The notes beneath the pieces are model-generated. The model worked only from the letters and a program-made list of their open reading frames with translations, made no database searches and was not told where the DNA came from. The position numbers and the translations under genes were made by a program. A stretch of DNA of 64,000 nucleotides from Candidatus Dojkabacteria bacterium (GTDB taxonomy: Bacteria; Patescibacteriota; Dojkabacteria; SC72), in the NCBI GenBank assembly GCA_035271645.1, contig DATERJ010000012.1, forward strand, positions 28,964-92,963. Direction: 5' to 3'. Each line of letters starts with the position of its first letter. The stretch's first letter is position 1. This document shows positions 3,951-61,197 of this stretch, piece by piece.

Positions 3951-4062
3951 TTTGGGCAGTTTTTTCTCTACTTACAGTTTATCGCAAGTAGATATCGCCT
4001 GTCAATTTTTTCTTTTATGATAGGAGTTAATGTGGTTTTTATTTGTCTGTTTTTCTTCGGAT

Positions 4063-4497
4063 TTACTCTACCTCGACTACCCCGTTTTCTAAAATAGTGA
4101 CAGTCATGTCATCTTGAACGTAGTTTAAGAACTCGTCTCCCAAAGAATCGATTGTTGGCATACTGTTATCTGTCCATACATCTGCTAAGATAGCTCCTGC
4201 TGCTGCTAGTGAGTCAATGGGTTTGGAAAACAGTAATGCACCAGGACTACAGTTCGTTACCGCTGCATTGTACAAGACCATACCTCCTGTTGTTGAACCA
4301 ATGGTTTGTGGTAAGCATAGGGCAACTCCTACAGTTGATTTGCCATACAGATCTTTGTTGTTTTGATCTGTACAGATATTCTTTCCCTCCTTACAATCTT
4401 TATACGATGCCAATGTATTAAAACCAGTATGTGATACTAAGGCTTTTAGCTTACAAGTACCTGGTACTACAACTCTTCCTTTAAATGTTTTTTTCAT
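4063..4497 (-). CDS. aconitase X (AcnX) small subunit-like swivel-domain protein (DUF126 family)
   Basis: 144 aa. Gly-rich core (TIGSTTGGMVLYNAAVTNCSPGALLFSKPIDSLAAAGAILADV) resembles DUF126. Immediately follows the DUF521-like large-subunit gene. Confidence 0.6.
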   Translation of the reverse strand: MKKTFKGRVVVPGTCKLKALVSHTGFNTLASYKDCKEGKNICTDQNNKDLYGKSTVGVALCLPQTIGSTTGGMVLYNAAVTNCSPGALLFSKPIDSLAAAGAILADVWTDNSMPTIDSLGDEFLNYVQDDMTVTILENGVVEVE

Positions 4498-4509
4498 TTT
4501 TCTTATCTT

Positions 4510-5769
4510 TTATATAATTTGTTCTAAAATCTCATCATCAGAATAATATTTAGATGAAGTATAGGTTCTTAATTTGTTTGAATTTGTAATAACTGGCATT
4601 TTTGCACATAGTGGATTATTCATATACATTAAAGGACATATATAGCTTGTAACTACACCCATCTCTTTTAACTTCTTAGCATTCTCTGTATTCTCAAATT
4701 CTTTCAAAACAGCTGGAGCAGAAGTAAAGACAGTTTTAATTCTAATCTTTTTCTTTCCTTTTGCTTTTAGAGCTTCTTCTAACTTCTCTGTCCAGTCATT
4801 AAGTTGTTTTAGACTCATATGTGGACAGCCCATGAAGCATAGTTTTGGTTTAGCATCAGGATTTTTCCAAATGCATGGATAGCTTTTCTTTACCCTTTCT
4901 AATTCAGCATCATCTACTATGTAGACTTTAGCGTTTTCATTAATCAAGTTTTCTTTTAATTCAACTGCTTCTGGGGTTAGATTTTCAACATGGTATAGTC
5001 CAACTGAGCCATTAGATGCCGTAGCTGCACCGAAGTCTTTTAAGTATGATAATGTGTCTTCATCTAAAGTGGTTCCTAACCATTTATCTAAACCTTTAAT
5101 ATATGGAACATCTTCTAAAACTTTCATCCCTATCGCAGAACCTAGTAGTTGTGCTTCTGGTTTCTTTGTTGTCTTTACTTCAACAATCCAGTTAGCTTTT
5201 CTTCCTTCATCAGTAAGAAGACCAAAGTAAGGGACATAGCCAACGATTGATCCAAACATTTCAATAATGCCAGAGTTACGATTGCATCTTGCTCCCAATA
5301 CAGAGTTTGCATAGTTTACAGCACTTGATTCTGCCCAAGAGAGAATGTCTCCTTTTTCGGGTATGTTACCTACTTCTGGAAGATATGCTGCACAGGTAAA
5401 AGCATCGTCTGAGAGAAGTCCTATCTTTTTAAGTTGATCTTCATATCGCTTTTGTGGTCCATACATGATTTTGAAAACAAGGTCTTGGAGGATATTCTTA
5501 GGTACATTTGGATCTAGTGGTCTAGGGTCTGCTGAGAATTTTTGTTTTGACTCAACTTCTGCATCAAGAAGTACATCCATTAAGTCAAAGACTCCTTTTA
5601 CAACTATGACTCCAAAACTAGTTACAATATGTCCGTATTTGCTAGTAACAGGAACCATTTTAGTAGCACCAAAGGTTTCTCCGTACATGACTAATGTCTT
5701 CATTATCTTAGCCATTACTTCACCTTGCTGACCATCTAAAATTGCTTGTTGTTCTTTTGTTAATTCCAT
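4510..5769 (-). CDS. aconitase X (AcnX) large/catalytic subunit-like protein (DUF521 family hydro-lyase)
   Basis: 419 aa. N-terminus MELTKEQQAILDGQQGEVMAKIMKTLVMYGE matches the DUF521 start pattern. Several conserved Cys/Ser positions. Paired with the small-subunit gene. Confidence 0.65.
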   Translation of the reverse strand: MELTKEQQAILDGQQGEVMAKIMKTLVMYGETFGATKMVPVTSKYGHIVTSFGVIVVKGVFDLMDVLLDAEVESKQKFSADPRPLDPNVPKNILQDLVFKIMYGPQKRYEDQLKKIGLLSDDAFTCAAYLPEVGNIPEKGDILSWAESSAVNYANSVLGARCNRNSGIIEMFGSIVGYVPYFGLLTDEGRKANWIVEVKTTKKPEAQLLGSAIGMKVLEDVPYIKGLDKWLGTTLDEDTLSYLKDFGAATASNGSVGLYHVENLTPEAVELKENLINENAKVYIVDDAELERVKKSYPCIWKNPDAKPKLCFMGCPHMSLKQLNDWTEKLEEALKAKGKKKIRIKTVFTSAPAVLKEFENTENAKKLKEMGVVTSYICPLMYMNNPLCAKMPVITNSNKLRTYTSSKYYSDDEILEQII

Positions 5770-5781
5770 ATATTTGTTTTA

Positions 5782-7842
5782 CTAAATTTTCATTCCAACA
5801 TCCCACGCTCTCCATGTGACTGTTCTTAAGTTACCAACCTCATTGCAATCACCTACGAGATGGACTTTTCGATTTGTTTCAGGGATTGTTTTTGGATTGT
5901 AGCCTACTGACATAATGACAGTATCTGCTTCTATGAATATTTCTTCTCCATCTTTGTTCATTATCTTAACTCCATCCTTTGTAATCTCTTGAACAGCAGA
6001 TTCTAAGTGAACCTCAACATTATTTAGTGCAAAGAACTCTCTGAGATATGAACTGTTTGCTAAACAAACTCCTCTTACAGCTATTAAATCATTCCTTGCT
6101 TCAACGATAATAGGTATTTTTCCTTTTTGGTATAGGTCTAATGCAATCTCACAACCGGTTAAACCTCCACCAATGATTATAACTTTTTCACCAGCTTTGG
6201 AGTTGTCTTTCAAATAGTCACATGCTTCAATTGTATTCTCAATTCCTTTTATCTTTAATCTCTTTGGTGTTGCCCCTATTGCAACAATTACTTCATCTGC
6301 ATCTATTTCATCAATATTAGTCACTTCCGTATTAAACTTAATTTCAATTTGTAAATCTTGCATCTCTTTTTCGTACCAATCAAGCAAGGCTCTCTCTTTA
6401 TCTTTAAAACCAGGTGTTGAAGCATATTTAAATACTCCTCCTACCCTATCACTTTTTTCATAAATTGTTGCCTTGTGTCCTCGTAGTGTTAAGAGTCTTG
6501 CAACTTCCATTCCCCCTATTCCTGCACCAATAACTGCAATGTGTTTAGGATTATTTGTTTTTACAATCTTGTATTTCTTAGATTGCATAGTAGTTGGGTT
6601 TAGTGCACATCTAGCCATACCTGCATTATCTGAAAGTGCTTGGTCATTCCCTACTCCTTTGTAGTGAGCCATATTAAAACATGCATTATGACAACCAATA
6701 CATGGCTTTATACTTTCCTCATCACCATTCATGAGTTTAGTAATCCACTCTGGATCAGTGAGGAATTGTCTAGCAACTCCCATTGCATCAATTCTGCCCT
6801 CTTTTATCGATCCTGCTCCTGCTGATGGTGTCATTCTACCTGCACAAACTACTGGAATATCTACATACTTCCTAATCTCTTCAACATCTTTAAGGTTACA
6901 GTTGTAAGGCATATACCCTGGAGGATGAGCCCAGTACCAAGCATCATATGTTCCATTGTCACAATTTAACATGTCATATCCTGCATCTTGTAGATATTTT
7001 GCAGCACGTTTTGATTCCTCCATATCTCTTCCTACTTCAGTATATTCTTCACCTGGGAGTGCTCCTTGTCCGAATCCTTTTGTCTTAGAAACGACCGAAT
7101 ATCTGAGTGATACTGGAAAATCTTTTCCACACTCTTTTTTAATTGCTTGCACTATTTCAATAGGAAATCTATATCTATTCTCAAATGAACCTCCATACTT
7201 ATCATCTCTAAAGTTTGTATATTTCATTGTAAATTGATCAAGAAGATAGCCTTCATGAACAGCATGAATTTCAATACCGTCTACTCCTGCCTCTTGGCAA
7301 AGTTTAGCTGTTTTAGCAAAACCTTCAATTATCTCCTGTATTTCTTCAACTGTCATAGGTCTAGACATTACAGAATCATCCCAACGATTTGGTGTTGCAC
7401 TTGCACTAGCTGTTAGGTAGTCAACATCTAGAACTGGTTTGAGAAGTGTTCCTAAGAATTTGTTGTGATGAGCTTCAATCATTAGGTGGTTAATTGCTAG
7501 ACTTCTTCCAAAACCTGCTGTTAATTGGATGAATAGTTTAGAACCTGTTTTGTGGAATTCATCCATGAACTCTTTAAGTTCTCGGAATTTGCCTTTACCT
7601 TGGTAGAGCCATTTTCCCCAAAGGATATCACGAATTGGAGCAATACCAGGGAGTATTAGTCCTACATTATTCCTTGCTCTTTCTAAAATGAAATTGGCTG
7701 CCTCTTTGTCAAAATGATTACCCAATGGTTCCATCCATCCAAAGAGTGATGTACCACCCATAGATGTCATAACAATCCTGTTTTTGATTTCAAGATTACC
7801 AATCTTCCATGGGGTGAATAGTGGTTTGTACTCTTGTTTCAT
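5782..7842 (-). CDS. Old Yellow Enzyme-family NAD(P)H:flavin oxidoreductase with 4Fe-4S motif and C-terminal FAD/NAD(P)-binding domain (2-enoate reductase / 2,4-dienoyl-CoA reductase-like)
   Basis: 686 aa. N-terminal OYE TIM-barrel features (IKNRIVMTSMG, HAVHEGYLLDQF). Cys cluster CIGCHNACFNMAHY...C. Rossmann motif HIAVIGAGIGGMEVA and a second IIIGGGLTGCE. Confidence 0.8.
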   Translation of the reverse strand: MKQEYKPLFTPWKIGNLEIKNRIVMTSMGGTSLFGWMEPLGNHFDKEAANFILERARNNVGLILPGIAPIRDILWGKWLYQGKGKFRELKEFMDEFHKTGSKLFIQLTAGFGRSLAINHLMIEAHHNKFLGTLLKPVLDVDYLTASASATPNRWDDSVMSRPMTVEEIQEIIEGFAKTAKLCQEAGVDGIEIHAVHEGYLLDQFTMKYTNFRDDKYGGSFENRYRFPIEIVQAIKKECGKDFPVSLRYSVVSKTKGFGQGALPGEEYTEVGRDMEESKRAAKYLQDAGYDMLNCDNGTYDAWYWAHPPGYMPYNCNLKDVEEIRKYVDIPVVCAGRMTPSAGAGSIKEGRIDAMGVARQFLTDPEWITKLMNGDEESIKPCIGCHNACFNMAHYKGVGNDQALSDNAGMARCALNPTTMQSKKYKIVKTNNPKHIAVIGAGIGGMEVARLLTLRGHKATIYEKSDRVGGVFKYASTPGFKDKERALLDWYEKEMQDLQIEIKFNTEVTNIDEIDADEVIVAIGATPKRLKIKGIENTIEACDYLKDNSKAGEKVIIIGGGLTGCEIALDLYQKGKIPIIVEARNDLIAVRGVCLANSSYLREFFALNNVEVHLESAVQEITKDGVKIMNKDGEEIFIEADTVIMSVGYNPKTIPETNRKVHLVGDCNEVGNLRTVTWRAWDVGMKI

Positions 7843-7938
7843 AAACCTTTCTCCTTTAATTTAGATATGAATTAAAAGATACGATTTGATACTAAATAGT
7901 ACAGAGTTAAGTTGTGGATTGCAAGGAGCTGGCTTTAA

Positions 7939-8118
7939 GGTCTGACCTAGGTCTGTCCCCCAATTTCCACCCCCTTCTGCCTGTCTATCAAGGTTTGTTG
8001 GTTTGGATACTTCTGATGACAGCTTACAAAGTTCATCCGAAATACGACGCTTTGGACTAGGAAACCGTTGTACAAGGAGAGAACCTTTGAACATGGAAGG
8101 TCTGACCTACCCCAGACC
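7939..8118. repeat. hairpin-bounded intergenic repeat element, copy A (about 180 nt; inverted relative to copy C)
   Basis: Termini GGTCTGACCTAGGTCTGTCCCCC ... GGTCTGACCTACCCCAGACC. The reverse complement of the core is about 90% identical over roughly 100 nt to the copy at 61003-61182 (shared ...CGGTTTCCTAGTCCAAAGCG.CGTATTTCGGATGAACTTTGTAAGC...TCCAAACCAACAAACCTTGATAG). Confidence 0.55.
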
Positions 8119-8132
8119 TTGGTAAGCTTCTG

Positions 8133-8141
8133 TGGTAGAAT
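8133..8141 (+). promoter_or_regulatory. extended -10 promoter element TGgTAGAAT immediately upstream of dus (predicted leaderless or near-leaderless)
   Basis: TG-n-TAGAAT at 8133-8141. The predicted TSS coincides with the dus ATG at 8148. No SD. Confidence 0.35.
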
Positions 8142-8147
8142 ATCTCT

Positions 8148-9092
8148 ATGAACATATACAGACAGATACTTAAGAAGAAAGGTCACATTCTGGCCCTTGC
8201 CCCTATGGAAGGTGTTACTGACACTGTTTTTAGGCAGGTTTTATGCAAAATTGGTAAACCAGATCTGTTTTTTACAGAATTTCTTAATGTTGAAGGTTTC
8301 TGTTCTAAAGGAAGGGAGAAAGTTATACATAGGTTGGATTTTAGGAATATTGAGAAACCTGTGGTTGTACAACTTTGGGGGAATGTTCCTGAGTATTATG
8401 CTGAAACTGTTGAATATGTAAAGACTCTTAATCCAGATGGTATAGATATTAACATGGGTTGTTCTGTTAGAGATGTGCTTTCTAGTGGAAGAGGTTCTGC
8501 TTTGATAAATGACAAGGTATTAGCTAAGGAGATAATTGATGTTGTTAAGGAGAGTGCAGGTGATTTACCTGTTAGTGTGAAGACTAGGATTGGTTTTGAC
8601 AAGATTGATACAGAGGAATGGATTGGCTTTTTGCTTGAGCAAGGTTTGGATATGATTACGGTTCATGGAAGACTTTCGAGAGAGGGTTACTCTACTCCAT
8701 CTAGGTGGGATGAGATAGCCAAGTGTGTAAAGTTAAGAAATGAAATTGCTCCTGATACTATTGTTTTAGGAAATGGTGATGTGAAGGATATTGAACAGGC
8801 TAAGGAATATGTAGATAGATATGGTGTTGATGGCGTTATGATTGGTAGAGCTATACTGACTAATCCATGGTTGTTTAGTGGTAGGAAGCCAGAGGATATA
8901 TCTAAGGAAGAGAGAGTTGAGGTTCTAAAAAAACATTTAGAGATTTTTGAGAAAGAAAGAGGAGAGATGAATATATTTAACAGTCAGAAGAAGTATATTA
9001 AGGCATACATTAGTAATTTTGATACAGCAGGAGAATTGAGATCTAAGCTTATGGATACAAGTAGTTCTCTGGAGATTATGGATATACTTTGA
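8148..9092 (+). CDS. dus: tRNA-dihydrouridine synthase
   Basis: 314 aa. LAPMEGVTDTVFR, TIM-barrel Dus motifs, DINMGC (catalytic Cys), VHGR. Confidence 0.85.
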   Translation: MNIYRQILKKKGHILALAPMEGVTDTVFRQVLCKIGKPDLFFTEFLNVEGFCSKGREKVIHRLDFRNIEKPVVVQLWGNVPEYYAETVEYVKTLNPDGIDINMGCSVRDVLSSGRGSALINDKVLAKEIIDVVKESAGDLPVSVKTRIGFDKIDTEEWIGFLLEQGLDMITVHGRLSREGYSTPSRWDEIAKCVKLRNEIAPDTIVLGNGDVKDIEQAKEYVDRYGVDGVMIGRAILTNPWLFSGRKPEDISKEERVEVLKKHLEIFEKERGEMNIFNSQKKYIKAYISNFDTAGELRSKLMDTSSSLEIMDIL

Positions 9093-10745: not shown

Positions 10746-10795
10746 TTAGTAAGTTTAGTAGTTTAATTGTTTCATTATATCTCTATGTTATGGCA

Positions 10796-10828
10796 AAAGA
10801 CAGCCAGTATATTAAACTGACTGTCTTT
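10796..10828 (-). terminator. hairpin (12-bp stem AAAGACAGCCAG/CTGACTGTCTTT, 9-nt loop) downstream of the 10877-11212 gene; candidate intrinsic terminator
   Basis: Stem-loop read directly. Only a short U-run (TTTTGCC) follows on the minus strand. Confidence 0.3.
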
Positions 10829-10876
10829 ACCTAATTCTAATTAACTGAAGACAAGAAGAGTAATACTTCCTTCTAG

Positions 10877-11212
10877 CTATTTAATTACTATTGATTCTCC
10901 ACATAAACTCCAAGCTTGGATATAGTCTCCTCCAAGTTTCTTTTCGAAAAGAGGTTTAAGAAAATCGTATAGAAAGCCTCCCTGTACACTTTTCTTTAGG
11001 TTCTTTCTATCATATCTGAAATCTAGTGTCACAAAATCAGTACCATCAGGTCTGATACTTGCATAGATTAAACCTTTGTCCTCCTTCTCCCATTCTTTTA
11101 CAGCAGAATAAAGCTGTATTGGAGATACATACAAATTAGAGAACTTGAGGGAACCTGTAAACATTCCATTTTTTAAAGAGGTTTGGAATTCCTCTTGTAT
11201 GGTTTTATCCAT
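10877..11212 (-). CDS. hypothetical protein (111 aa)
   Basis: ORF only. No recognisable motif. Last gene of the same-strand block that follows tRNA-Val. Confidence 0.45.
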   Translation of the reverse strand: MDKTIQEEFQTSLKNGMFTGSLKFSNLYVSPIQLYSAVKEWEKEDKGLIYASIRPDGTDFVTLDFRYDRKNLKKSVQGGFLYDFLKPLFEKKLGGDYIQAWSLCGESIVIK

Positions 11213-11320
11213 ATTATTAAAGTAATTAAAGTAAAATAAAGTATTAGTAATATATTATTATATTACTGTAACTATATTATACCATTTTTTACTAGGGGTT
11301 TGCAAATCCAATTCTATTAC

Positions 11321-11830
11321 TTAATGAACTTCAATATCAGACAAAGAAAGATACTTTGCTACAATATCAGCTCGTTCTTTGTTTCTACTTACTACAGCTA
11401 CACTTACAATTGAATCATCTGCTTCGTAATCCCAAAACTCTACTTCACCTTCTACATCTAGTAATGAACCAAACTCTACTCTTGAAACTAGTTGATAGTC
11501 ATGAGCCACTTTTTTAAACTCTTTACCTTTGAACTGTACTGTTTCCTTAAAACCATCAAATTCAGGTATTCTACCTTCATTATGTCCAAGGTAAATAATA
11601 TTATCAGAAGGGATAAGGACTAGGACATTATGTTCTTCTAACAGAACTTTTGCATATATTGATGTGGGTTCACTCTGGGTTGCATACAAAGCCTTACCTA
11701 AAACTTTGTATGGTTTATCCTTAATAACTAGAGTACTTCCTTCTGTGATTTTTTCTATAATGGTGTTCATATAATTATTTCTTGTTAAATTATTTGTACC
11801 AAAATCTTTATCTCTCACTAACAAACTCAA
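11321..11830 (-). CDS. hypothetical protein, possibly DUF4178-like beta-rich domain (start may be the internal Met at about 11770)
   Basis: 169-aa ORF. C-terminal DVEGEVEFWDYEADD pattern. The first-ATG start overlaps the upstream gene by 23 nt. The internal MNTIIEK start avoids the overlap. Confidence 0.5.
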   Translation of the reverse strand: MSLLVRDKDFGTNNLTRNNYMNTIIEKITEGSTLVIKDKPYKVLGKALYATQSEPTSIYAKVLLEEHNVLVLIPSDNIIYLGHNEGRIPEFDGFKETVQFKGKEFKKVAHDYQLVSRVEFGSLLDVEGEVEFWDYEADDSIVSVAVVSRNKERADIVAKYLSLSDIEVH

Positions 11831-12053
11831 ACCTATTTACTACTGTACCATCCTCTAATTCTTTTGTACCCATGAAATCATCTAACTTTCTAACCCATGC
11901 TTTAGTTTCACTTTCTTCTTTGTAATACAATGGAATATATAATACAACATCCTCTTCTGTTTCAGAATCTTTAGCTAACATTAAAGCTAAATACATTCCT
12001 CCTTTGAAATGTCTATACACACCTGGTTGGAATTTTCTTTCTGTATTTCCCAT
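11808..12053 (-). CDS. DUF1653-family small protein
   Basis: 81 aa with GVYRHFKGGMY...VLYIPLY, characteristic of DUF1653. Confidence 0.6.
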   Translation of the reverse strand: MGNTERKFQPGVYRHFKGGMYLALMLAKDSETEEDVVLYIPLYYKEESETKAWVRKLDDFMGTKELEDGTVVNRFEFVSER

Positions 12054-12084
12054 ATATGAGATATGTTTTAAAATAATTAGTTAA

Positions 12085-12819
12085 TTATATACTCATTTGG
12101 AAATCTTTGCTCATCTTCTTTAGTTTAACAATCGCATTGTCTAATCTCTCCTTTACATCTTCTCTACAATGCTTCCCTATCCATACAATATGTCTATCTA
12201 TTAGAGCAATGTGTGGGATATCCTTTTCATCTAAATAAATTGCAACATTATCTTCCCCCAGAAAATCTGGATATATATCCTGATTTGATAATTCTAGAAA
12301 CTTTTTAATTAACTCAATTAAAGTTTTCTTAAACTCAGCATATTTTGTAGTATAGCTATGTAACTTCTTAGAATCTATTCTAAAAATATCTCCTTGTATA
12401 TTATCTATCCATTTGGTAGATATTAGAACAGTTTTCTGTCCTGTTCCCATAGGGTCATCACAGATAGAGTATTTCTCTTCTGGTATTACTAAGCTAGGTA
12501 TATTACCAAACTCAGAGGAGTACCAATCAGTTTCTTCTTTCCAATCTCTGATAACTTCTTGCAAATCTTCTATGGTATCTCCAGTATATACAGGTCTTGC
12601 TCTGAATTTTAGATATGGACGATTATTATGGTTAGGAGTTTCTTTAGAAATTAGTAGTGTTTTATTACAAACATCCTTATCTCTAAATACAAATGTTTGT
12701 CCGGCATAATATTTGTACTCTCCATATTGCCCTTTGTATTTTGATAATAACGACTCTACTGTTTTTCTACGTTCTTTGCTTTTGGAATTTGATGTAGAGT
12801 TCTTTTTAGGTTTTTTCAT
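12085..12819 (-). CDS. hypothetical protein (244 aa) with basic Lys/Ser-rich N-terminus
   Basis: ORF only. No recognisable catalytic motif. Confidence 0.5.
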   Translation of the reverse strand: MKKPKKNSTSNSKSKERRKTVESLLSKYKGQYGEYKYYAGQTFVFRDKDVCNKTLLISKETPNHNNRPYLKFRARPVYTGDTIEDLQEVIRDWKEETDWYSSEFGNIPSLVIPEEKYSICDDPMGTGQKTVLISTKWIDNIQGDIFRIDSKKLHSYTTKYAEFKKTLIELIKKFLELSNQDIYPDFLGEDNVAIYLDEKDIPHIALIDRHIVWIGKHCREDVKERLDNAIVKLKKMSKDFQMSI

Positions 12820-12825
12820 ATTTGA

Positions 12826-13263
12826 TTATATATCCTCTTCTTTAAAAATCCTATTCACCCTTCTGTATATTAAATCTTCCTTATCATCAAAAATATCTTC
12901 CAGTTCTACTAAGGATACCCATTGATAGTTAATATGTTCATCAGATAGTATTACTTCAGGAGTATTGTCTAAAAATACTAAAAATGTAGTTTCTGTTATA
13001 TTCTTAATATCACCTTTCTCTGTAGTAAAACTATATTTTTCAGAATCTACCTCTTTTAACTCTCTATCTGATATATCTATACCTGTTTCTTCTTTTACTT
13101 CTCTTACTACGGTTTTTGGCATATCTTCACCTTCTTCAATACCTCCAGATGGTAATTCCCAAAAACCTGGAAAGGAATCATCTTTTGGTGTCCTTTGGAT
13201 AAGGAGGAACTTTTTATCAGGATTGAGTAGTAAGCAAGAGATATTTTCTTTTGTGATTATCAT
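12826..13263 (-). CDS. NUDIX hydrolase
   Basis: Nudix box GGIEEGEDMPKTVVREVKEETGI (GX5EX7REUXEEXGU). Confidence 0.8.
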   Translation of the reverse strand: MIITKENISCLLLNPDKKFLLIQRTPKDDSFPGFWELPSGGIEEGEDMPKTVVREVKEETGIDISDRELKEVDSEKYSFTTEKGDIKNITETTFLVFLDNTPEVILSDEHINYQWVSLVELEDIFDDKEDLIYRRVNRIFKEEDI

Positions 13264-13305
13264 TGTGGTAGGTATTTAAATTTAGTTGTTTCTGAAGCAG
13301 GTATC

Positions 13306-14268
13306 CTATTGCTTTTTGGCCTTCTTTGTTTCTAATCGTTCAATCCTTTTGTCCCAGTCACCATTCCATCCCTGAGACTTTGCTTGTTTAACCAATTCAA
13401 TTGCCTCATCATACTTACCCTGTTTATCAAGAATAATAGCTAACTGAGTATATCCAGGATGAGTTGGCAGTCCTCCAGAATAGCTCTTTAGAAAAGCTTC
13501 TGCAGCTTTTGGGGATAAGTCTATCTGTTTTTGAGCAGATTGTATAGCGATATCCAACGCCTTCGGGTCTATATCACGAAGTTTGTAATACAATCCCATT
13601 TTTGCAGCCCAGAAGAAGTGTTGATCTAAAGTATCCCCCTTCTCTACATATTCTTCCGCCTTGTTAATAAGTTTAAATGCTAAAGTTCTATCTCTTGGGT
13701 TATCAAACCAGCTAGATAAAGATGAGAGATGAAAAGATGCAGATTTTTCTGTTAGTTTTGACAGCCCATTCTTTAATCCTGATGATGCTCCTAGTGGTTG
13801 GTACATTTCTTCCATGTGATTTTGTTCTTCTTTTGTAAATTCTTTTTCAAACCACTCTGCTAGATTTAGATTAGGACTGTTGTCTTCAATATCTGTATAA
13901 GAGGAGACAACTTCCTGTTCTGTCTGATTCTCTTGATTCCTACTTTTCTTTTTTTGTAGAAAGTAATAAATAATAATAGCTATTCCAACAGGAGGTAAAA
14001 TAATTAGCAAAAAAAGTCCTATTAGGATAGTACAGATGGATGAGTTATTTCCATTTGTTTGTCTCGTTTTTTTGTTGGTTTTGAATAAATCTCCTAATCC
14101 AAATGTGGTTTTATTATAAACTTTGTTATATACGTATCTTTTAGGATTTGTAATCCAACCTGTTCCGCGTGGCATTCGTAGACCTAAGGAGTTTTTAATT
14201 TTTCTTTTTATAGAAAATCTTGCTGACAAACTCTTTTTTAAAGATGGCTTTCTTAATCCGAATTTCAT
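13306..14268 (-). CDS. hypothetical membrane-anchored protein with C-terminal helical-repeat (TPR-like) region
   Basis: 320 aa. Basic N-terminus (MKFGLRKPSLKKSLSARFSIKRK...GWITNPKRYVYNKVYNKTT), one TM (ICTILIGLFLLIILPPVGIAIIIYYFL) and an alpha-helical C-terminus. Confidence 0.5.
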   Translation of the reverse strand: MKFGLRKPSLKKSLSARFSIKRKIKNSLGLRMPRGTGWITNPKRYVYNKVYNKTTFGLGDLFKTNKKTRQTNGNNSSICTILIGLFLLIILPPVGIAIIIYYFLQKKKSRNQENQTEQEVVSSYTDIEDNSPNLNLAEWFEKEFTKEEQNHMEEMYQPLGASSGLKNGLSKLTEKSASFHLSSLSSWFDNPRDRTLAFKLINKAEEYVEKGDTLDQHFFWAAKMGLYYKLRDIDPKALDIAIQSAQKQIDLSPKAAEAFLKSYSGGLPTHPGYTQLAIILDKQGKYDEAIELVKQAKSQGWNGDWDKRIERLETKKAKKQ

Positions 14269-14284
14269 ATCTGTATAACTCTAA

Positions 14285-14361
14285 TGGTGGGCGATACAGG
14301 AATTGAACCTGTGACCTTCACAATGTCAATGTGACGCTCTAGCCAGCTGAGCTAATCGCCC
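14285..14361 (-). tRNA. tRNA-Val (anticodon GAC), CCA encoded
   Basis: Minus-strand sequence GGGCGATTAGCTCAGCTGGCTAGAGCGTCACATTGACATTGTGAAGGTCACAGGTTCAATTCCTGTATCGCCCACCA. 7-bp acceptor, D arm GCTC/GAGC, anticodon loop TTGACAT, T arm ACAGG/CCTGT with TTCAATT loop. Confidence 0.85.
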
Positions 14362-37389: not shown

Positions 37390-37470
37390 CTTTTCCTTTC
37401 TTTTTGAATGTTTTTTAATTGTACAAAGAACCCTTAATTATACCACAGAACGATTGGGAACACTATGGGG

Positions 37471-51218: not shown

Positions 51219-52424
51219 CTACTTCTTAATATACTTTCTATATTTTAATTTATCTGGCATACATTGTTGATCTGACTTCTTACTTGGTAAATCATGGTCA
51301 TATTCATAGTCTTTACCATATCCAATATCTTTCATTAGTTTTGTAGGAGCATTTCGTATATTCATAGGTACTGGAAGATTGCCATACTTCTCAATATCTA
51401 CTTTTACCTCACCCTCTACTCTGTATGCTGTATTGTCCTTAGGTGCATTAGAGAGATATATTGCTAATTGCATAAGGAATACTTCACATTCTGGCATACC
51501 AATCTTCTGACAAGCTTCATATACAGCATTTGCTAATATGACAGCTTGTGGGTCTGCATTACCGATATCTTCACTTGCAAACCTTAACATTCTTCTTGCA
51601 ATGTATAGTGGGTCTTCTCCTCCTGCTAACATTCTTCCAGTCCAGTAACAAGCAGCATCAGGATTAGATGACCTCATTGATTTGTGTATAGCGGAGATAA
51701 TGTTGTAGTGTTCTTCTCCTGTTTTGTCATAGTATACTGGCTTTTGTACTGTTGTTGTTAATATATCCATAGTTATTTCTTTCTTCTCTTCATCTTTTGC
51801 ATTTGCTAGTGTAGAACTCATTTCCAATATATTTAATGCAGACCTAATATCTCCATTTGAGAGATTAGCCATTTGTTCTAGTACTTTCTTTGATATTTTA
51901 ATCTCTGGATATTCTTCCTTTGATATTCGTTTTAGGAGGTTGTATATATCTTCTTCTGTTTGTTGTTTGAATACAAATACTTTTGTTCTAGAAAGAAGTG
52001 CAGATATTACAGTAAATGATGGGTTCTCTGTTGTTGCACCGATTAGTGTAATGATTCCTTTCTCTACATATGGTAGGAGTGTGTCTTGTTGTGCTTTGTT
52101 CCATCTGTGTATTTCATCTAGGAAGAGGATTGTTTTTTTACCGTATTGTTGATTACCAATTGCTATTTTAATGATTTTTCTTAGATGTTCTTTCCCACTA
52201 TTTACAGCTTGCATTTTGTGAAAGTCATAGTAGAGATTAAGGGAAAGTATGTATGCTAAGGTTGTTTTACCTGTACCGGGTGGTCCCCAGAATATCATAG
52301 ATGGTATTTTACCCGTTTCCAAAAACTTCCTTATGGGGCCGTTCTTTCCTACTAGGTGTTCCTGTCCTACAAACTCTTCAAGTGTTTTAGGTCTGTATTT
52401 TGATGCTAGTGGTTCGTTAGTCAT
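51219..52424 (-). CDS. rarA: replication-associated recombination protein A (MgsA/RarA AAA+ ATPase)
   Basis: 401 aa. GPPGTGKTTLA, LFLDEIHR, C-terminal MgsA-specific helical domain. Confidence 0.85.
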   Translation of the reverse strand: MTNEPLASKYRPKTLEEFVGQEHLVGKNGPIRKFLETGKIPSMIFWGPPGTGKTTLAYILSLNLYYDFHKMQAVNSGKEHLRKIIKIAIGNQQYGKKTILFLDEIHRWNKAQQDTLLPYVEKGIITLIGATTENPSFTVISALLSRTKVFVFKQQTEEDIYNLLKRISKEEYPEIKISKKVLEQMANLSNGDIRSALNILEMSSTLANAKDEEKKEITMDILTTTVQKPVYYDKTGEEHYNIISAIHKSMRSSNPDAACYWTGRMLAGGEDPLYIARRMLRFASEDIGNADPQAVILANAVYEACQKIGMPECEVFLMQLAIYLSNAPKDNTAYRVEGEVKVDIEKYGNLPVPMNIRNAPTKLMKDIGYGKDYEYDHDLPSKKSDQQCMPDKLKYRKYIKK

Positions 52425-52462: not shown

Positions 52463-52630
52463 GGTCTGGTCTGGGTCAGACCTTATACATTTTACGAAAA
52501 GCGTTGTCGCACGACCATTTGGAAGGAAAGCCAGTCCAAACCGAGAAATCGTACCCAACAAGTTAATCAGGAGAAAGCGGTTGTTTTCCTGTCATAAAAG
52601 GATATTACTAAGTCAGACCTAGGTCAGACC
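52463..52630. repeat. hairpin-bounded intergenic repeat element, copy B (same termini, divergent core)
   Basis: Termini GGTCTGGTCTGGGTCAGACC ... GTCAGACCTAGGTCAGACC. The 128-nt core shares only a short block (GTCCAAACC...) with copies A and C. Confidence 0.45.
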
Positions 52631-52640
52631 TGTTGAGAGT

Positions 52641-53234
52641 CTAACCATAAATATGCAAATATTCACCATTACTTAGTTTTTCTTTCTTTTTTGCTTTTAA
52701 TCCTTTGATTTCATATCTATAACTAAATACCTCACCCCCACCCTTAATAAATTTCTCAAACTTCTTTTTCAATATACTCATACTCTTTTCATCTAAATAA
52801 CAATATATTTTTGTAAAATCTTTTAGAGATGCTTCATATATATTCTCAACATCAAAAATGATATCTTTGTTTGTAGGATACTTTAATATTCTAAATGCTC
52901 TGGCAATGATAATCATGATTGGAGAGAGGTCTAAACCATAGCATTTACACTTAGCATTACCATATGTTTCCAGTACTACCTTTCCATCTCCACAACCTAA
53001 ATCTACAAAAGTATCATCTTTCTTAAGATTCATGAAATCAATAATTTCATGAATGATATCCCTAGGAGTTTTAAGAATAGGAACTAAAAGAAGATTGATT
53101 AAAACAGTTAAAAGGAATGCTCCAATGAGCATAATCACAATTAAAACAATACCTACAGTTATTCCATTTGCCATTTGTATAGAAGAATAATATATAATTA
53201 GGTATATGATAGACGGAATCTTGTTAATTAACAA
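52641..53234 (-). CDS. class I SAM-dependent methyltransferase with N-terminal TM helix (start more likely the internal Met near 53174)
   Basis: 197 aa. VDLGCGDGK motif I. The first-ATG start overlaps truB by 29 nt on the opposite strand. The internal MANGITVG start does not. Confidence 0.6.
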   Translation of the reverse strand: MLINKIPSIIYLIIYYSSIQMANGITVGIVLIVIMLIGAFLLTVLINLLLVPILKTPRDIIHEIIDFMNLKKDDTFVDLGCGDGKVVLETYGNAKCKCYGLDLSPIMIIIARAFRILKYPTNKDIIFDVENIYEASLKDFTKIYCYLDEKSMSILKKKFEKFIKGGGEVFSYRYEIKGLKAKKKEKLSNGEYLHIYG

Positions 53235-55486: not shown

Positions 55487-55539
55487 GAAAATATTTTACC
55501 ACATATTAAAATTGAAAAATGTGGTAGAATTATACTGTA

Positions 55540-60807: not shown

Positions 60808-61002
60808 GTTTTGACTATATCATATTTCACCACTTTCTACCACTTCTTGCCACTAATATAGCTTGGGGGGCTTGGGGTGTCAAGAGAAAAACATTACAGG
60901 CTCGAATATAACACTCTGGGCCACATACTTCTCTAAAAGTAAAGCCATTTTCTATATGTGTGCTCTCCCTATTGTCATCTCCTCTGGAACCGATAGGTTT
61001 TA

Positions 61003-61182
61003 GGTCTGACCTAGGTTAGACCTTCGATTTCCTTCGGTTTTCGCATTGTACAATCGTTTCCTAGTCCAAAGCGCCGTATTTCGGATGAACTTTGTAAGCC
61101 GAAATCAGAAGTGTCCAAACCAACAAACCTTGATAGGTAGGTAGATAGGTATGGAAAACAGGGGACAGATCTGGGACAGACC
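61003..61182. repeat. hairpin-bounded intergenic repeat element, copy C (about 180 nt)
   Basis: Termini GGTCTGACCTAGGTTAGACC ... GGGGACAGATCTGGGACAGACCC. The core is near-identical to the reverse complement of copy A. Confidence 0.55.
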
Positions 61183-61197
61183 CTAAAGATGTTGGGC

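Follow-up and report, generated by a model that had tools for sequence, protein, structure and literature searches.

The window, a stretch of 64,000 nucleotides (64 kb) from a Candidatus Dojkabacteria contig, harbors three intergenic elements, A, B and C, whose features are collected in Table 1. Element A is flanked by divergent promoters, those of an Oxidored_FMN gene (5782-7842, minus strand) and of dus (8148-9092, plus strand), and its right terminus occupies the -35 position of the dus promoter, ending 17 nt upstream of the TAGAAT hexamer. The left terminus of B adjoins the -35 region of the promoter of a minus-strand gene (51219-52424), and its right terminus begins 11 nt downstream of the stop codon of another (52641-53234, minus strand). 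Extended -10 motifs like TGTGGTAGAAT occur four times in the window, three of them 6 to 9 nt upstream of a start codon. Measured from outer palindrome end to outer palindrome end, A and C are both 180 nt long and B is 168 nt long. The elements have a G+C content of approximately 47%, compared with approximately 35% for the window.

Table 1. Coordinates of elements A, B and C, their terminal repeats (REPs) and associated motifs
Feature	Position	Strand	Description
Element A	7939..8118	+	REP, 140-nt conserved linker (core), REP; A/C family
A-left REP	7939..7958	+	GGTCTGACC TA GGTCTGTCC; 9-mers in the same direction, no stable hairpin alone
GTTCATCC	8031..8038	+	Motif within the A core, seen in the sequence
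GCTTTGGACTAGGAAAC	8049..8065	+	Best-conserved A/C core block; GGA-TAGGAAA invariant in an 11-copy alignment
GTTCA	8088..8092	-	A few nt inside A-right REP; position comparable to the motif beside the upstream REP of REP-associated tyrosine transposase (RAYT) genes
A-right REP	8099..8118	+	GGTCTGACC TA CCCCAGACC; hairpin type, -6.5 kcal/mol, z -3.75
TGTGGTAGAAT	8131..8141	+	Extended -10 element of dus, flanking feature outside the repeat; dus ATG at 8148, predicted leaderless
Element B	52463..52630	-	REP, 128-nt core, REP
B-left REP	52463..52482	+	GGTCTGGTC TG GGTCAGACC; hairpin type, -6.8 kcal/mol, z -4.5
B-right REP	52611..52630	+	AGTCAGACC TA GGTCAGACC; direct-repeat type
Element C	61003..61182	-	A/C-family copy, orientation opposite to A, between divergent promoters
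C-left REP	61003..61022	+	GGTCTGACC TA GGTTAGACC; hairpin type, -4.7 kcal/mol, z -2.6; homologue of A-right
C-right REP	61163..61182	+	GGACAGATC TG GGACAGACC; direct-repeat type; homologue of A-left

The termini of all three elements are variants of GGTCTGACC-TA-GGTCAGACC. The basic unit is a near-palindromic 9-mer, GGTCWGACC, and two units 11 nt apart make up a 20-nt REP. Allowing up to three mismatches, the 20-mer GGTCTGACCTAGGTCAGACC was found five times in the window, against 0.00 times in 100 shuffles. The pattern GGNCNGNCC NN GGNCNGNCC, with up to two mismatches, matched exactly six sites in the 64 kb, all of which are element termini. The three loci described in the initial annotation are at the coordinates given there. 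With six sites against none expected, the short extragenic repeat is over-represented, and the same motif is found in many metagenome-assembled genomes (MAGs) of the candidate phyla radiation (CPR).

The termini were folded as single-stranded DNA and compared with shuffled sequence. Stable stems were obtained for A-right, B-left and C-left, whereas the folds of A-left, B-right and C-right, each made of two 9-mers in the same orientation, were no more stable than those of shuffled sequence. One end of each element is thus of the hairpin type and the other of the direct-repeat type, and the architecture originally proposed, a core between two hairpins, holds for three of the six ends but not for the others. 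The outer arms of the elements are inverted and able to pair with each other. In most described REPs, one end bears a tetranucleotide tag, GTAG or CGTC (PMC3733652). Such a tag is absent from the REP ends in these elements, which have AA/AG...TT flanks and a CTAG center, GTAG being present only in the A-right-type variant GGGGTAGGTCAGACC. No target-site duplication was evident at A, B or C, and no left-flank tetra- or pentanucleotide of the kind expected for IS200/IS605-derived elements was constant across the copies: CTTTA precedes A, C and a copy in a related genome (locus L016; L numbers denote the loci compared) and does not precede B, the copy at L034 or other families.

A and C are reverse-complement homologues (82% identity over 187 nt), A-left resembling C-right and A-right resembling C-left, in agreement with the opposite orientation first noted for them. 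B has only its termini in common with A and C. Its core gave no significant alignment to theirs and was unique among the sequences compared; the polarity of its ends suggests that the minus strand of B corresponds to the plus strand of A. Across loci and genomes, the A/C core is conserved at 75 to 95%, and the CTAGG center of its best-conserved block, GCTTTGGACTAGGAAAC, resembles a degenerate REP center.

Pairs of the 20-mer 118 to 241 nt apart bound noncoding segments in many low-G+C CPR MAGs. Clustering of 31 REP-bounded segments gave 13 distinct core groups, and the A/C family comprises 14 segments at nine loci. Element A has an identical sequence in eight independent metagenome contigs spanning its full length and in a ninth (L010) that starts inside it; it is 94% identical in one further contig (L003), and its orthologue in a close relative is approximately 91% identical. 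The orthologue of C in a relative (L089) is 91% identical, compared with 93% for its flanks. Both A and C predate the split from a relative approximately 93% identical, in which they occupy the same loci. Their divergence is slightly faster than that of the flanks (identity of 90 to 91% versus 93 to 95%), a pattern that looks like neutral old DNA rather than an active element, and none of A, B and C showed an insertion polymorphism. A syntenic Dojkabacteria locus, L037, was considered as an empty site, but an extra gene differs as well, and the loci are not a clean filled/empty pair. The similarity of L034 to A continues for 33 nt beyond the element, but only through a promoter motif, TGTGGTAGAAT, that both have, and the gene downstream is another one; L034 is a copy at another locus and not an orthologue of A. 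Concerted evolution of A and C was favored by 3 alignment columns versus 24 that follow orthology, a weak signal.

In BIMEs, REPs alternate with recurrent linker modules to form mosaic arrays. Extra left half-modules are joined to full copies at L080, L118 and L124, and two extra right half-modules are present at L130; each of them ends in a REP, and the half-modules duplicate independently of one another. This mosaic of REPs and recurrent linkers is BIME-like. A 142-nt module (core plus REP) beside a RAYT gene is present at L122 and absent at L133, where the flanking proteins are 92 to 98% identical. Since the indel is bordered by imperfect direct repeats of approximately 15 to 23 nt, it could have arisen by recombinational deletion instead of transposition. 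Contigs from independent assemblies break inside or beside A (L004, L008 and L010), as expected for a dispersed repeat, which explains why assemblies of these organisms are interrupted at such sites.

In relatives, the same 20-mer palindromes lie on both sides of a Y1/HUH transposase gene of 150 to 180 codons. At L015 and L051, a pair of 20-mers 546 to 547 nt apart encloses an open reading frame of 161 and 172 amino acids, respectively. The product matches Pfam Y1_Tnp (PF01797) above the cut-off, and its sole NCBIfam match is REP_Tyr_transpos, with scores of 43 to 58 bits that lie below the curated cut-off of 80. RAYT genes with a REP on both sides were found at L015, L051/L107, L055-59, L060, L061, L062-64, L065, L067, L068, L122, L133 and L134-143. 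All further RAYT loci with flanks that were read have a palindrome of the same design on both sides, the sequence of which varies with the RAYT lineage (GGACTGACCTAGGTCAGTCC; GGGCAGACCTAGGTCTGCCC; GGGCAACCCTAGGGCTGCCC; GGCCAGGCCTAGGCATGGCC; GCCAGGCTATAGCCTGGC; and GGTCTGGCCTAGGCCTGCCC paired with GGGCAGACCTAGGCCAGACC). Translation of the RAYT usually stops within the downstream REP, and a 20-mer identical to A-left overlaps the stop codon at L015 and L062. Nearly all RAYT genes examined also have GTTCA(T/C)C, as in the A core, a few nucleotides inside their upstream REP. The 9-mers around RAYT genes and elements were compared for a consistent, arrow-type polarity, which was abandoned, the units being too palindromic and the patterns conflicting between lineages.

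Among 17 RAYT sequences, H75 and H77 (HxH, the HUH motif) and Y136-x3-N140-P141 (Y-x3-N-P) are invariant, and these motifs align with HMH and DYIYINP of Escherichia coli TnpA-REP (4ER8). A profile built from the 17 proteins retrieved only 4ER8 from the PDB (E value of 2.3e-5); a single-sequence search gave the same entry marginally (E value of 0.13), and the profile was needed. With an AlphaFold2 model of the RAYT (pLDDT of 88), the top Foldseek match was again 4ER8 (TM score of 0.70), and IS200/IS605 TnpAs scored 0.47 to 0.54. RAYT genes occupy two syntenic sites, one between genes for a DsbA-like protein and a DUF8173 protein and the other between recR-ybaB and mazG, and synteny is kept at both across RAYT proteins that are only 45 to 68% identical. 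This conservation fits vertical inheritance, as described for RAYTs (PMC5581495). Apart from the two REPs beside the gene, the 20-kb RAYT loci contain no further REP and no second RAYT copy, and the gene tables of the RAYT-encoding loci retrieved list no TnpB.

The absence of an encoded transposase from the window, as first annotated, was borne out: tblastn with RAYT proteins gave no match, and the RAYT profile found nothing in the six-frame translation (best E value of 0.016). A TnpA-type gene with ends matching those of the elements, which the initial annotation had suggested seeking, is found in relatives and not in the window, and the link to the window genome runs through those relatives. 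One RAYT (P0161, locus L136) is encoded on JAGPFQ010000001.1, a 644,853-nt contig of Candidatus Dojkabacteria Gw_SlDig_bin_189 that also carries an A/C-family copy (L016, 553-732) 83 to 84% identical to A and C. This genome is approximately 91% identical to a Joint Genome Institute (JGI) metagenome population, which is in turn 93 to 95% identical to the window. In another MAG, CAZKXP01, the RAYT locus L015 occurs together with short REP-bounded elements (L027, L028 and L036). Through the relatives that are 91 to 95% identical, we infer that the organism of the window itself probably carries such a RAYT. Tetranucleotide frequencies were also considered as a means of assigning the RAYT locus L122 to the population of the window; all Dojkabacteria-like loci scored 0.93 to 0.98, and the measure did not discriminate.

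Taken together, A, B and C are very probably REP/BIME-like mosaic repeats of a REP-RAYT system in a Candidatus Dojkabacteria-like (CPR/Patescibacteria) bacterium. The initial annotation had favored a nonautonomous, palindrome-associated element of the IS200/IS605 type. The Y1/HUH gene flanked by the same palindromes in relatives supports that affiliation, but the partner is probably of the RAYT type, located at syntenic sites and closest to TnpA-REP in the sequence and fold searches, and the elements are therefore better filed as REP/BIME-like than as MITE or PATE (palindrome-associated transposable element) derivatives of a multicopy IS200/IS605 element.

The closest known counterpart is the E. 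coli REP/BIME and TnpA-REP system (4ER8; Ton-Hoang 2012, Messing 2012). Both have dispersed short extragenic palindromes that also flank a small Y1/HUH transposase gene, and mosaic arrays of REPs and linkers. Their transposases are linked too, 4ER8 being the top match of the RAYT in the sequence and fold searches, where the HUH motif and the catalytic tyrosine align. Unlike the E. coli REP, the repeat of these elements consists of two 9-mer mini-palindromes, 20 nt in all, with a CTAG center and without the GTAG tag, and the linkers measure 130 to 200 nt rather than tens of nucleotides. The RAYT also differs from TnpA-REP in its stop codon, usually placed in the downstream REP, and in scoring under the NCBIfam equivalog cut-off, and the host belongs to the CPR, its genome measuring approximately 0.65 to 0.76 Mb, judged from the largest contigs of relatives. 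The REPIN-RAYT systems of Pseudomonas and Enterobacteria (Bertels and Rainey 2011; PMC3116915, PMC5581495) likewise have a nonautonomous two-REP unit whose inverted outer arms can pair, a RAYT at a fixed syntenic locus, and copies kept at orthologous loci, here over approximately 7% genome divergence. However, REPINs are compact hairpins with a short spacer, whereas the spacer in these elements is a conserved, nonpalindromic core of 128 to 140 nt and one end belongs to the direct-repeat type; the REPIN architecture of inverted REPs and a short spacer folding into one long hairpin was not found in A, B or C.

The elements could instead be MITEs or PATEs, that is, internally deleted copies of an active multicopy IS200/IS605 element moved by its TnpA. 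The partner protein belongs to Pfam Y1_Tnp, IS200/IS605 TnpA structures are its next-best fold matches, and the REP-RAYT-REP cassette is compact (approximately 546 nt), like a minimal IS200, and A-left has the same sequence as the 3'-end REP of the L015 RAYT gene. PATEs also share with A, B and C the dependence, predicted in our case, on a Y1 transposase for which secondary structures in subterminal DNA are the signal, and the lack of both classical long terminal inverted repeats and an evident target-site duplication. A further point concerns a minus-strand frame of the A/C core, open for approximately 55 codons in most of 11 copies and ending ...GQT* within the REP, as RAYT genes do, which may be a relic of a deleted transposase gene. 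The reading frames had been described as not conserved between copies, which does not apply to this one, yet it has no coding signature: substitutions are spread evenly over the codon positions (36/32/31). The RAYT profile showed no homology to the element cores, and a small protein encoded by the core was rejected on these two results. The lack of homology, and the fact that the cores fall in many unrelated groups, argue against deleted transposon copies as well. Besides, the RAYT cassettes stay at the same two syntenic sites despite 45 to 68% identity, where an IS would be scattered. Neither a second gene copy per 20-kb locus, nor a multicopy parent IS or tnpB, was found at the loci examined, and the best sequence and fold match is TnpA-REP and not an IS TnpA. 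We consider this origin quite unlikely.

Even less probable is that the elements are genes for a multicopy structured small RNA with the terminal palindromes as processing or terminator stems, a possibility raised in the initial annotation. Their G+C content above that of the genome (approximately 47% versus 35%), the 75 to 95% conservation of the core and the almost invariant GCTTTGGACTAGGAAAC block would suit such an RNA, and RNAalifold proposed helices on the plus strand, which depend on G-U pairs. With 11 copies, however, the covariation term was positive (a penalty), and a compensatory change was found in 1 of 34 predicted pairs; with five copies, the term was positive on both strands, with compensatory changes in 5 of 51 and 3 of 54 pairs. 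The folds of the aligned copies yielded almost no compensatory pairs. Single-copy folds of the two strands of A were unremarkable (z of -1.8 and -1.0). Rfam 15 returned only tRNAs at gathering thresholds, and at E values up to 1 its sole match was SNORA65, which is meaningless (16.8 bits versus a gathering score of 70). When the surroundings of A, B and C were scanned for promoters and terminators, nothing framed a transcript; the sole terminator-like match is the B-left hairpin, on the strand opposite to both neighboring genes. The orthologous copies diverge faster than their flanks, the half-modules duplicate independently, and the same ends flank a transposase gene, all of which speaks against an RNA gene. 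The other proposal of the initial annotation, a regulator-binding cassette, would make the palindromes operators for a dimeric transcription factor, for example of the GntR/FadR type, serving the adjacent promoters. Indeed, GGTCTGACC is the palindromic core of published GntR-family operators (LldR and PdhR), the units are 11 bp apart, which is one helical turn, and REPs overlap or adjoin the -35 regions of leaderless-gene promoters. Nevertheless, the neighboring genes have unrelated functions (dus, an oxidoreductase and others) and the sites, rather than being tied to a regulon, are paired around cores that are repeated and relocatable. They also border RAYT genes, varying in sequence from one RAYT lineage to another, and arrays of the same 9-mer flank RAYT genes in high-G+C bacteria. 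This association contradicts the operator proposal despite the resemblance of the 9-mer, and we hold that proposal to be very unlikely, although a regulator might use these sites secondarily.

Under the preferred REP/BIME-RAYT reading, each element consists of two REPs that enclose a 130- to 200-nt linker, itself repeated as family-specific modules. If the mechanism resembles that of E. coli TnpA-REP and of the TnpA of IS200/IS605, one Y1/HUH RAYT per genome, encoded elsewhere between two REPs, would recognize the REP folded in single-stranded DNA and nick beside it through a 5'-phosphotyrosine intermediate. We infer from the same analogy that the RAYT would bind and cleave these REPs and mobilize them, occasionally copying or moving REP-bounded modules, and the copies in the window are old, fixed residents beside promoters of leaderless genes. 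A more speculative extension, which we regard as improbable, is that the long, conserved cores are more than linkers and that the modules are mobile regulatory cassettes. In these small genomes they would insert immediately before leaderless genes with extended -10 promoters, replacing the -35 region, and would then act as a binding platform for a domesticated RAYT or, with the near-invariant GCTTTGGACTAGGAAAC as a loop, as a small structured element of RNA or DNA, and REP-RAYT would have been co-opted for promoter control or genome structuring, beyond persistence.

On the preferred reading, the elements are a known kind of nonautonomous repeat in an ultra-small CPR bacterium, not a new RNA or regulatory device, and the REP/BIME-RAYT system is one in a new lineage. 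REP-RAYT has so far been characterized mainly in Proteobacteria, and our literature search found no published account of it in the candidate phyla radiation. That a repeat family with its own domesticated-looking transposase persists in streamlined, likely symbiont genomes bears on how repeats survive under strong genome reduction. In practical terms, the REP modules are possible markers for strain typing, and the unusually simple REP (two 9-mers) with its small RAYT provides material for biochemistry. The recurrence of the same 9-mer beside RAYT genes in unrelated, high-G+C bacteria, where it forms arrays, points to a putative widespread RAYT clade with a conserved recognition sequence. Automatic annotation already names some of these genes "RayT".

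Re-reading the sequence confirmed the three elements of the initial annotation, A (7939-8118), B (52463-52630) and C (61003-61182), all of which are intergenic. Divergent genes lie on either side of A, and likewise of C, and B is placed between two minus-strand genes. The proposed opposite orientation of A and C was borne out by a repeat finder, which matched 7933-8119 to 61002-61188 in inverted orientation (187 nt, 82%); C is therefore a copy of A in reverse complement. Only the termini are common to B and the other two. The elements are clearly higher in G+C than the window (approximately 35%). The 20-nt terminal palindrome (REP; two 9-mers 11 nt apart), searched as GGTCTGACCTAGGTCAGACC with at most three mismatches, was found at 5 sites in the window versus 0.00 in shuffles, and a generalised 20-mer pattern at exactly 6 sites, which are the six element termini. 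A hairpin had been proposed at each end. In single-stranded DNA folding, A-right, B-left and C-left were stable, but A-left, B-right and C-right, which carry two 9-mers in the same orientation, folded no better than shuffled sequences, so that the basic unit is a near-palindromic 9-mer, GGTCWGACC, recurring every 11 nt. One end of every element is hairpin-type and the other direct-type, and the outermost arms of the two ends are mutually inverted and able to pair. One frame of the core is open, yet a coding function was rejected given no third-position excess.

The window encodes no transposase, as originally noted, and no REP-associated tyrosine transposase (RAYT) was found in it. TnpA-type genes with ends matching the termini had been proposed as a search target, and in relatives (loci L015 and L051) a Y1/HUH gene lies between such ends. 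At candidate phyla radiation (CPR) loci, motif pairs lie 118 to 241 nt apart with non-coding DNA between them; at L015 and L051 the pair is 546 to 547 nt apart and encloses an ORF of 161/172 amino acids, which matched Pfam Y1_Tnp above cut-off and, as its sole NCBIfam match, REP_Tyr_transpos under that model's cut-off. The L015/L062 RAYT gene carries at its 3' end a 20-mer identical to A-left. A palindrome of the 9-mer, TA, 9-mer design lies on both sides of the gene at every homologue locus with flanks read, and its sequence varies with the RAYT protein lineage. The stop codon is usually within the downstream REP (L015, L051, L055, L064, L067, L122), so that the last 2 to 4 residues (GQT, GLT, EEV) are repeat-encoded; at the exception, L136, the ORF stops 16 nt ahead of the REP. 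In nearly all RAYT lineages, a GTTCA(T/C)C motif is found 3 to 20 nt inside the upstream palindrome (L015, L051, L055, L060, L061, L064, L065, L068 and, in two copies, L122), and it is kept even where the flanking REP sequence differs. The motif also occurs within the short elements A, L035, L012, L053, L039 and L040; its spacing to the RAYT -10 element is not the canonical -35 distance.

Positions and sequences of REP-related features in the window and at other loci
Feature	Locus or protein	Position	Sequence or remark
GTTCA(T/C)C in core	A	8031-8038	
GTTCA(T/C)C just inside A-right	A	8088-8092	other strand than 8031-8038
RAYT-flanking palindrome	P0002, P0004		GGACTGACCTAGGTCAGTCC
RAYT-flanking palindrome	L015, P0003		GCACTGACCTAGGTCAGACC with GGTCTGACCTAGGTCTGTCC
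RAYT-flanking palindrome	P0006		GGGCAGACCTAGGTCTGCCC
RAYT-flanking palindrome	P0005		GGGCAACCCTAGGGCTGCCC
RAYT-flanking palindrome	P0007		GGCCAGGCCTAGGCATGGCC
RAYT-flanking palindrome	P0008		GCCAGGCTATAGCCTGGC
RAYT-flanking palindrome	L122		GGCCTTGCCTAGGTCTGCCC with GGGCAGACCTAGGCCAGACC
RAYT-flanking palindrome	L136		GGTCTGGCCTAGGCCTGCCC with GGGCAGACCTAGGCCAGACC
9-mer array, high G+C	L085	8149-8200	
9-mer array, high G+C	L085	8922-8965	
9-mer array (high G+C) or 20-mer copies	L112, L070, L123, L069, L026, L031, L047		

The protein is RAYT-like. HxH and Y-x3-N-P motifs are invariant in 17 RAYT sequences, and a profile of these matched 4ER8 alone among PDB sequences (E 2.3e-5, both motifs aligned), which is E. 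coli TnpA-REP in complex with a REP hairpin. The same structure was the top Foldseek match of an AlphaFold2 model (pLDDT 88; TM 0.70), with the ISDra2, IS608 and IS200 transposases next (TM 0.47 to 0.54). The gene occupies two conserved sites, DsbA-like/RAYT/DUF8173 and recR-ybaB/RAYT/mazG or fic, and this synteny is maintained across RAYT proteins 45 to 68% identical, which matches the fixed, vertical inheritance described for RAYTs (PMC5581495), unlike an insertion sequence. Some CPR homologues already carry the automatic annotation RayT; a literature search found no published account of REP-RAYT systems in CPR.

The repeat and the transposase were also linked to the window lineage. Contig JAGPFQ010000001.1 of Candidatus Dojkabacteria Gw_SlDig_bin_189 (644,853 nt; L136) carries both RAYT P0161 and L016, a full A/C-family copy with 83 to 84% identity to A and C. 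Over 2.4 kb, L016 and L083 share 91% identity, and L083 lies on one JGI contig with L089, the C-locus orthologue (93% identical to the window). These identities indicate that the three genomes are close relatives, in one of which repeat and RAYT are thus physically linked. The MAG CAZKXP01 likewise holds RAYT locus L015 and the short REP-bounded elements L027, L028 and L036. Across the GTDB species genomes scanned, the end motif was found in Candidatus Dojkabacteria, 'Saccharibacteria' and other Patescibacteria MAGs of 32 to 39% G+C; L037 (Dojkabacteria) is syntenic with window 23.8 to 30.4 kb (66 to 76% identity). The protein of the dus gene beside A is identical on contigs of numerous metagenomes, from anaerobic digesters and elsewhere; several of these contigs terminate within or next to A, as expected of a dispersed repeat.

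The elements had been tentatively ascribed to an IS200/IS605-type MITE. The enzyme superfamily was correct; against such an origin, the transposase cassettes keep fixed syntenic positions, neither tnpB nor a multi-copy IS was seen, and the element cores are unrelated to the transposase gene. The alternative of a structured small RNA found no support, since neither strand showed covariation in alignments of 5 or 11 copies, fold stability was unremarkable, Rfam gave no match, and scans around the elements showed no promoter or terminator framing them. As to a regulator-binding cassette, GntR-type operators have this 9-mer as their core, and REPs sit at the -35 position of leaderless-gene promoters; however, the association and co-variation of REPs with RAYT argue for operator function as at most a secondary use.

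The elements and RAYT are best explained as a REP/BIME-RAYT system. They differ from a strict REPIN in the long, non-palindromic spacer of the window elements, and from most described REPs in that no GTAG/CGTC tag is present. What was observed is the repeat family, its co-variation and physical association with a gene of the Y1/HUH type, the motifs and fold of the encoded protein, the modular arrays and a single polymorphic module. Beyond this, the biochemistry of TnpA-REP and IS200/IS605 suggests that RAYT would recognise a REP that has folded in single-stranded DNA and would cleave beside it via a phosphotyrosine intermediate, which could occasionally lead to duplication or relocation of REP-bounded modules. 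GTTCA(T/C)C may contribute to the site of recognition or cleavage.

When 31 REP-bounded segments of low-G+C loci were clustered, they yielded an A/C family (14 segments, 9 loci), a second family of 202 nt (5 segments) and a number of singletons, including B. A/C copies form mosaic arrays in which each half-module is REP-ended, with an extra left half-module (REP plus about 60 to 90 nt) at L080, L118 and L124 and two extra right half-modules at L130; E. coli BIMEs are organised similarly. Beside RAYT, a module of 142 nt (core and REP) is present in L122 and not in L133, loci whose flanking proteins are 92 to 98% identical; since the indel lies between imperfect direct repeats, gain and loss are indistinguishable. 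A and C share 80% identity, each is about 91% identical to its orthologue in the relative (L080 and L089, on JGI metagenome contigs 91 to 95% identical to the window), and their flanks are 93 to 95% identical. Columns of A and C followed orthology in 24 cases and a concerted pattern in 3. Judged by sequence divergence, the window copies are old.

Other arrangements were also seen. At L053 6691-7000 (Dojkabacteria MAG), between two tRNA genes, a perfect REP precedes tandem units of ~100 nt, each closing with the half-REP ATAGGTCAGAC; GGGGTCGAACAT-TGA-TTGACC is common to these units and the L122 module. A different sub-family in another Dojkabacteria MAG (L039 4200-4520, L040 4811-4928) has a conserved 20-mer, AAGATGAACTTTTTCTGAAC, ahead of each REP (GGTCTGACCTAGGTCAGACC or GGCGAGGCCTAGGCCAGGCC), its units running head to tail rather than inverted. 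In soil contigs and MAGs of high G+C (59 to 69%; Vicinamibacterales and others), tandem arrays of 3 to 5 copies of the same 9-mer, GGTCTGACC, with an 11-nt period flank RAYT homologues that are ~33% identical to CPR RAYTs, and Massilia and other Betaproteobacteria hold several perfect 20-mer copies. One recognition unit thus appears common to a RAYT clade across phyla.

The extended -10 element TGTGGTAnAAT recurs in the window (8131-8141, 37437-37447, 55493-55503, 55520-55530), in three of four cases 6 to 9 nt upstream of a start codon, a spacing which suggests that leaderless mRNAs are common in this organism; it also follows REP-bounded elements at L034, L118 and L012. A three-gene block by A (3982-7929; two AcnX subunits and a 686-aa Oxidored_FMN/Pyr_redox protein) is missing from the L080 relative, where the junction holds the extra partial left half-module; window 3982-4062 shows no trace of a REP. 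In a second strain-level replacement, window 10749-14287 (~3.5 kb), just upstream of tRNA-Val (14285-14361), is unrelated to L080 510-2525 (~2 kb). In one metagenome, L003 250-442 differs from window 7933-8125 at 11 of 193 positions within A, versus 2 to 3 differences over ~260 nt of flanks, and some variant bases are shared with other copies of the family, a hint of gene conversion, although most of the A and C columns counted above follow orthology.
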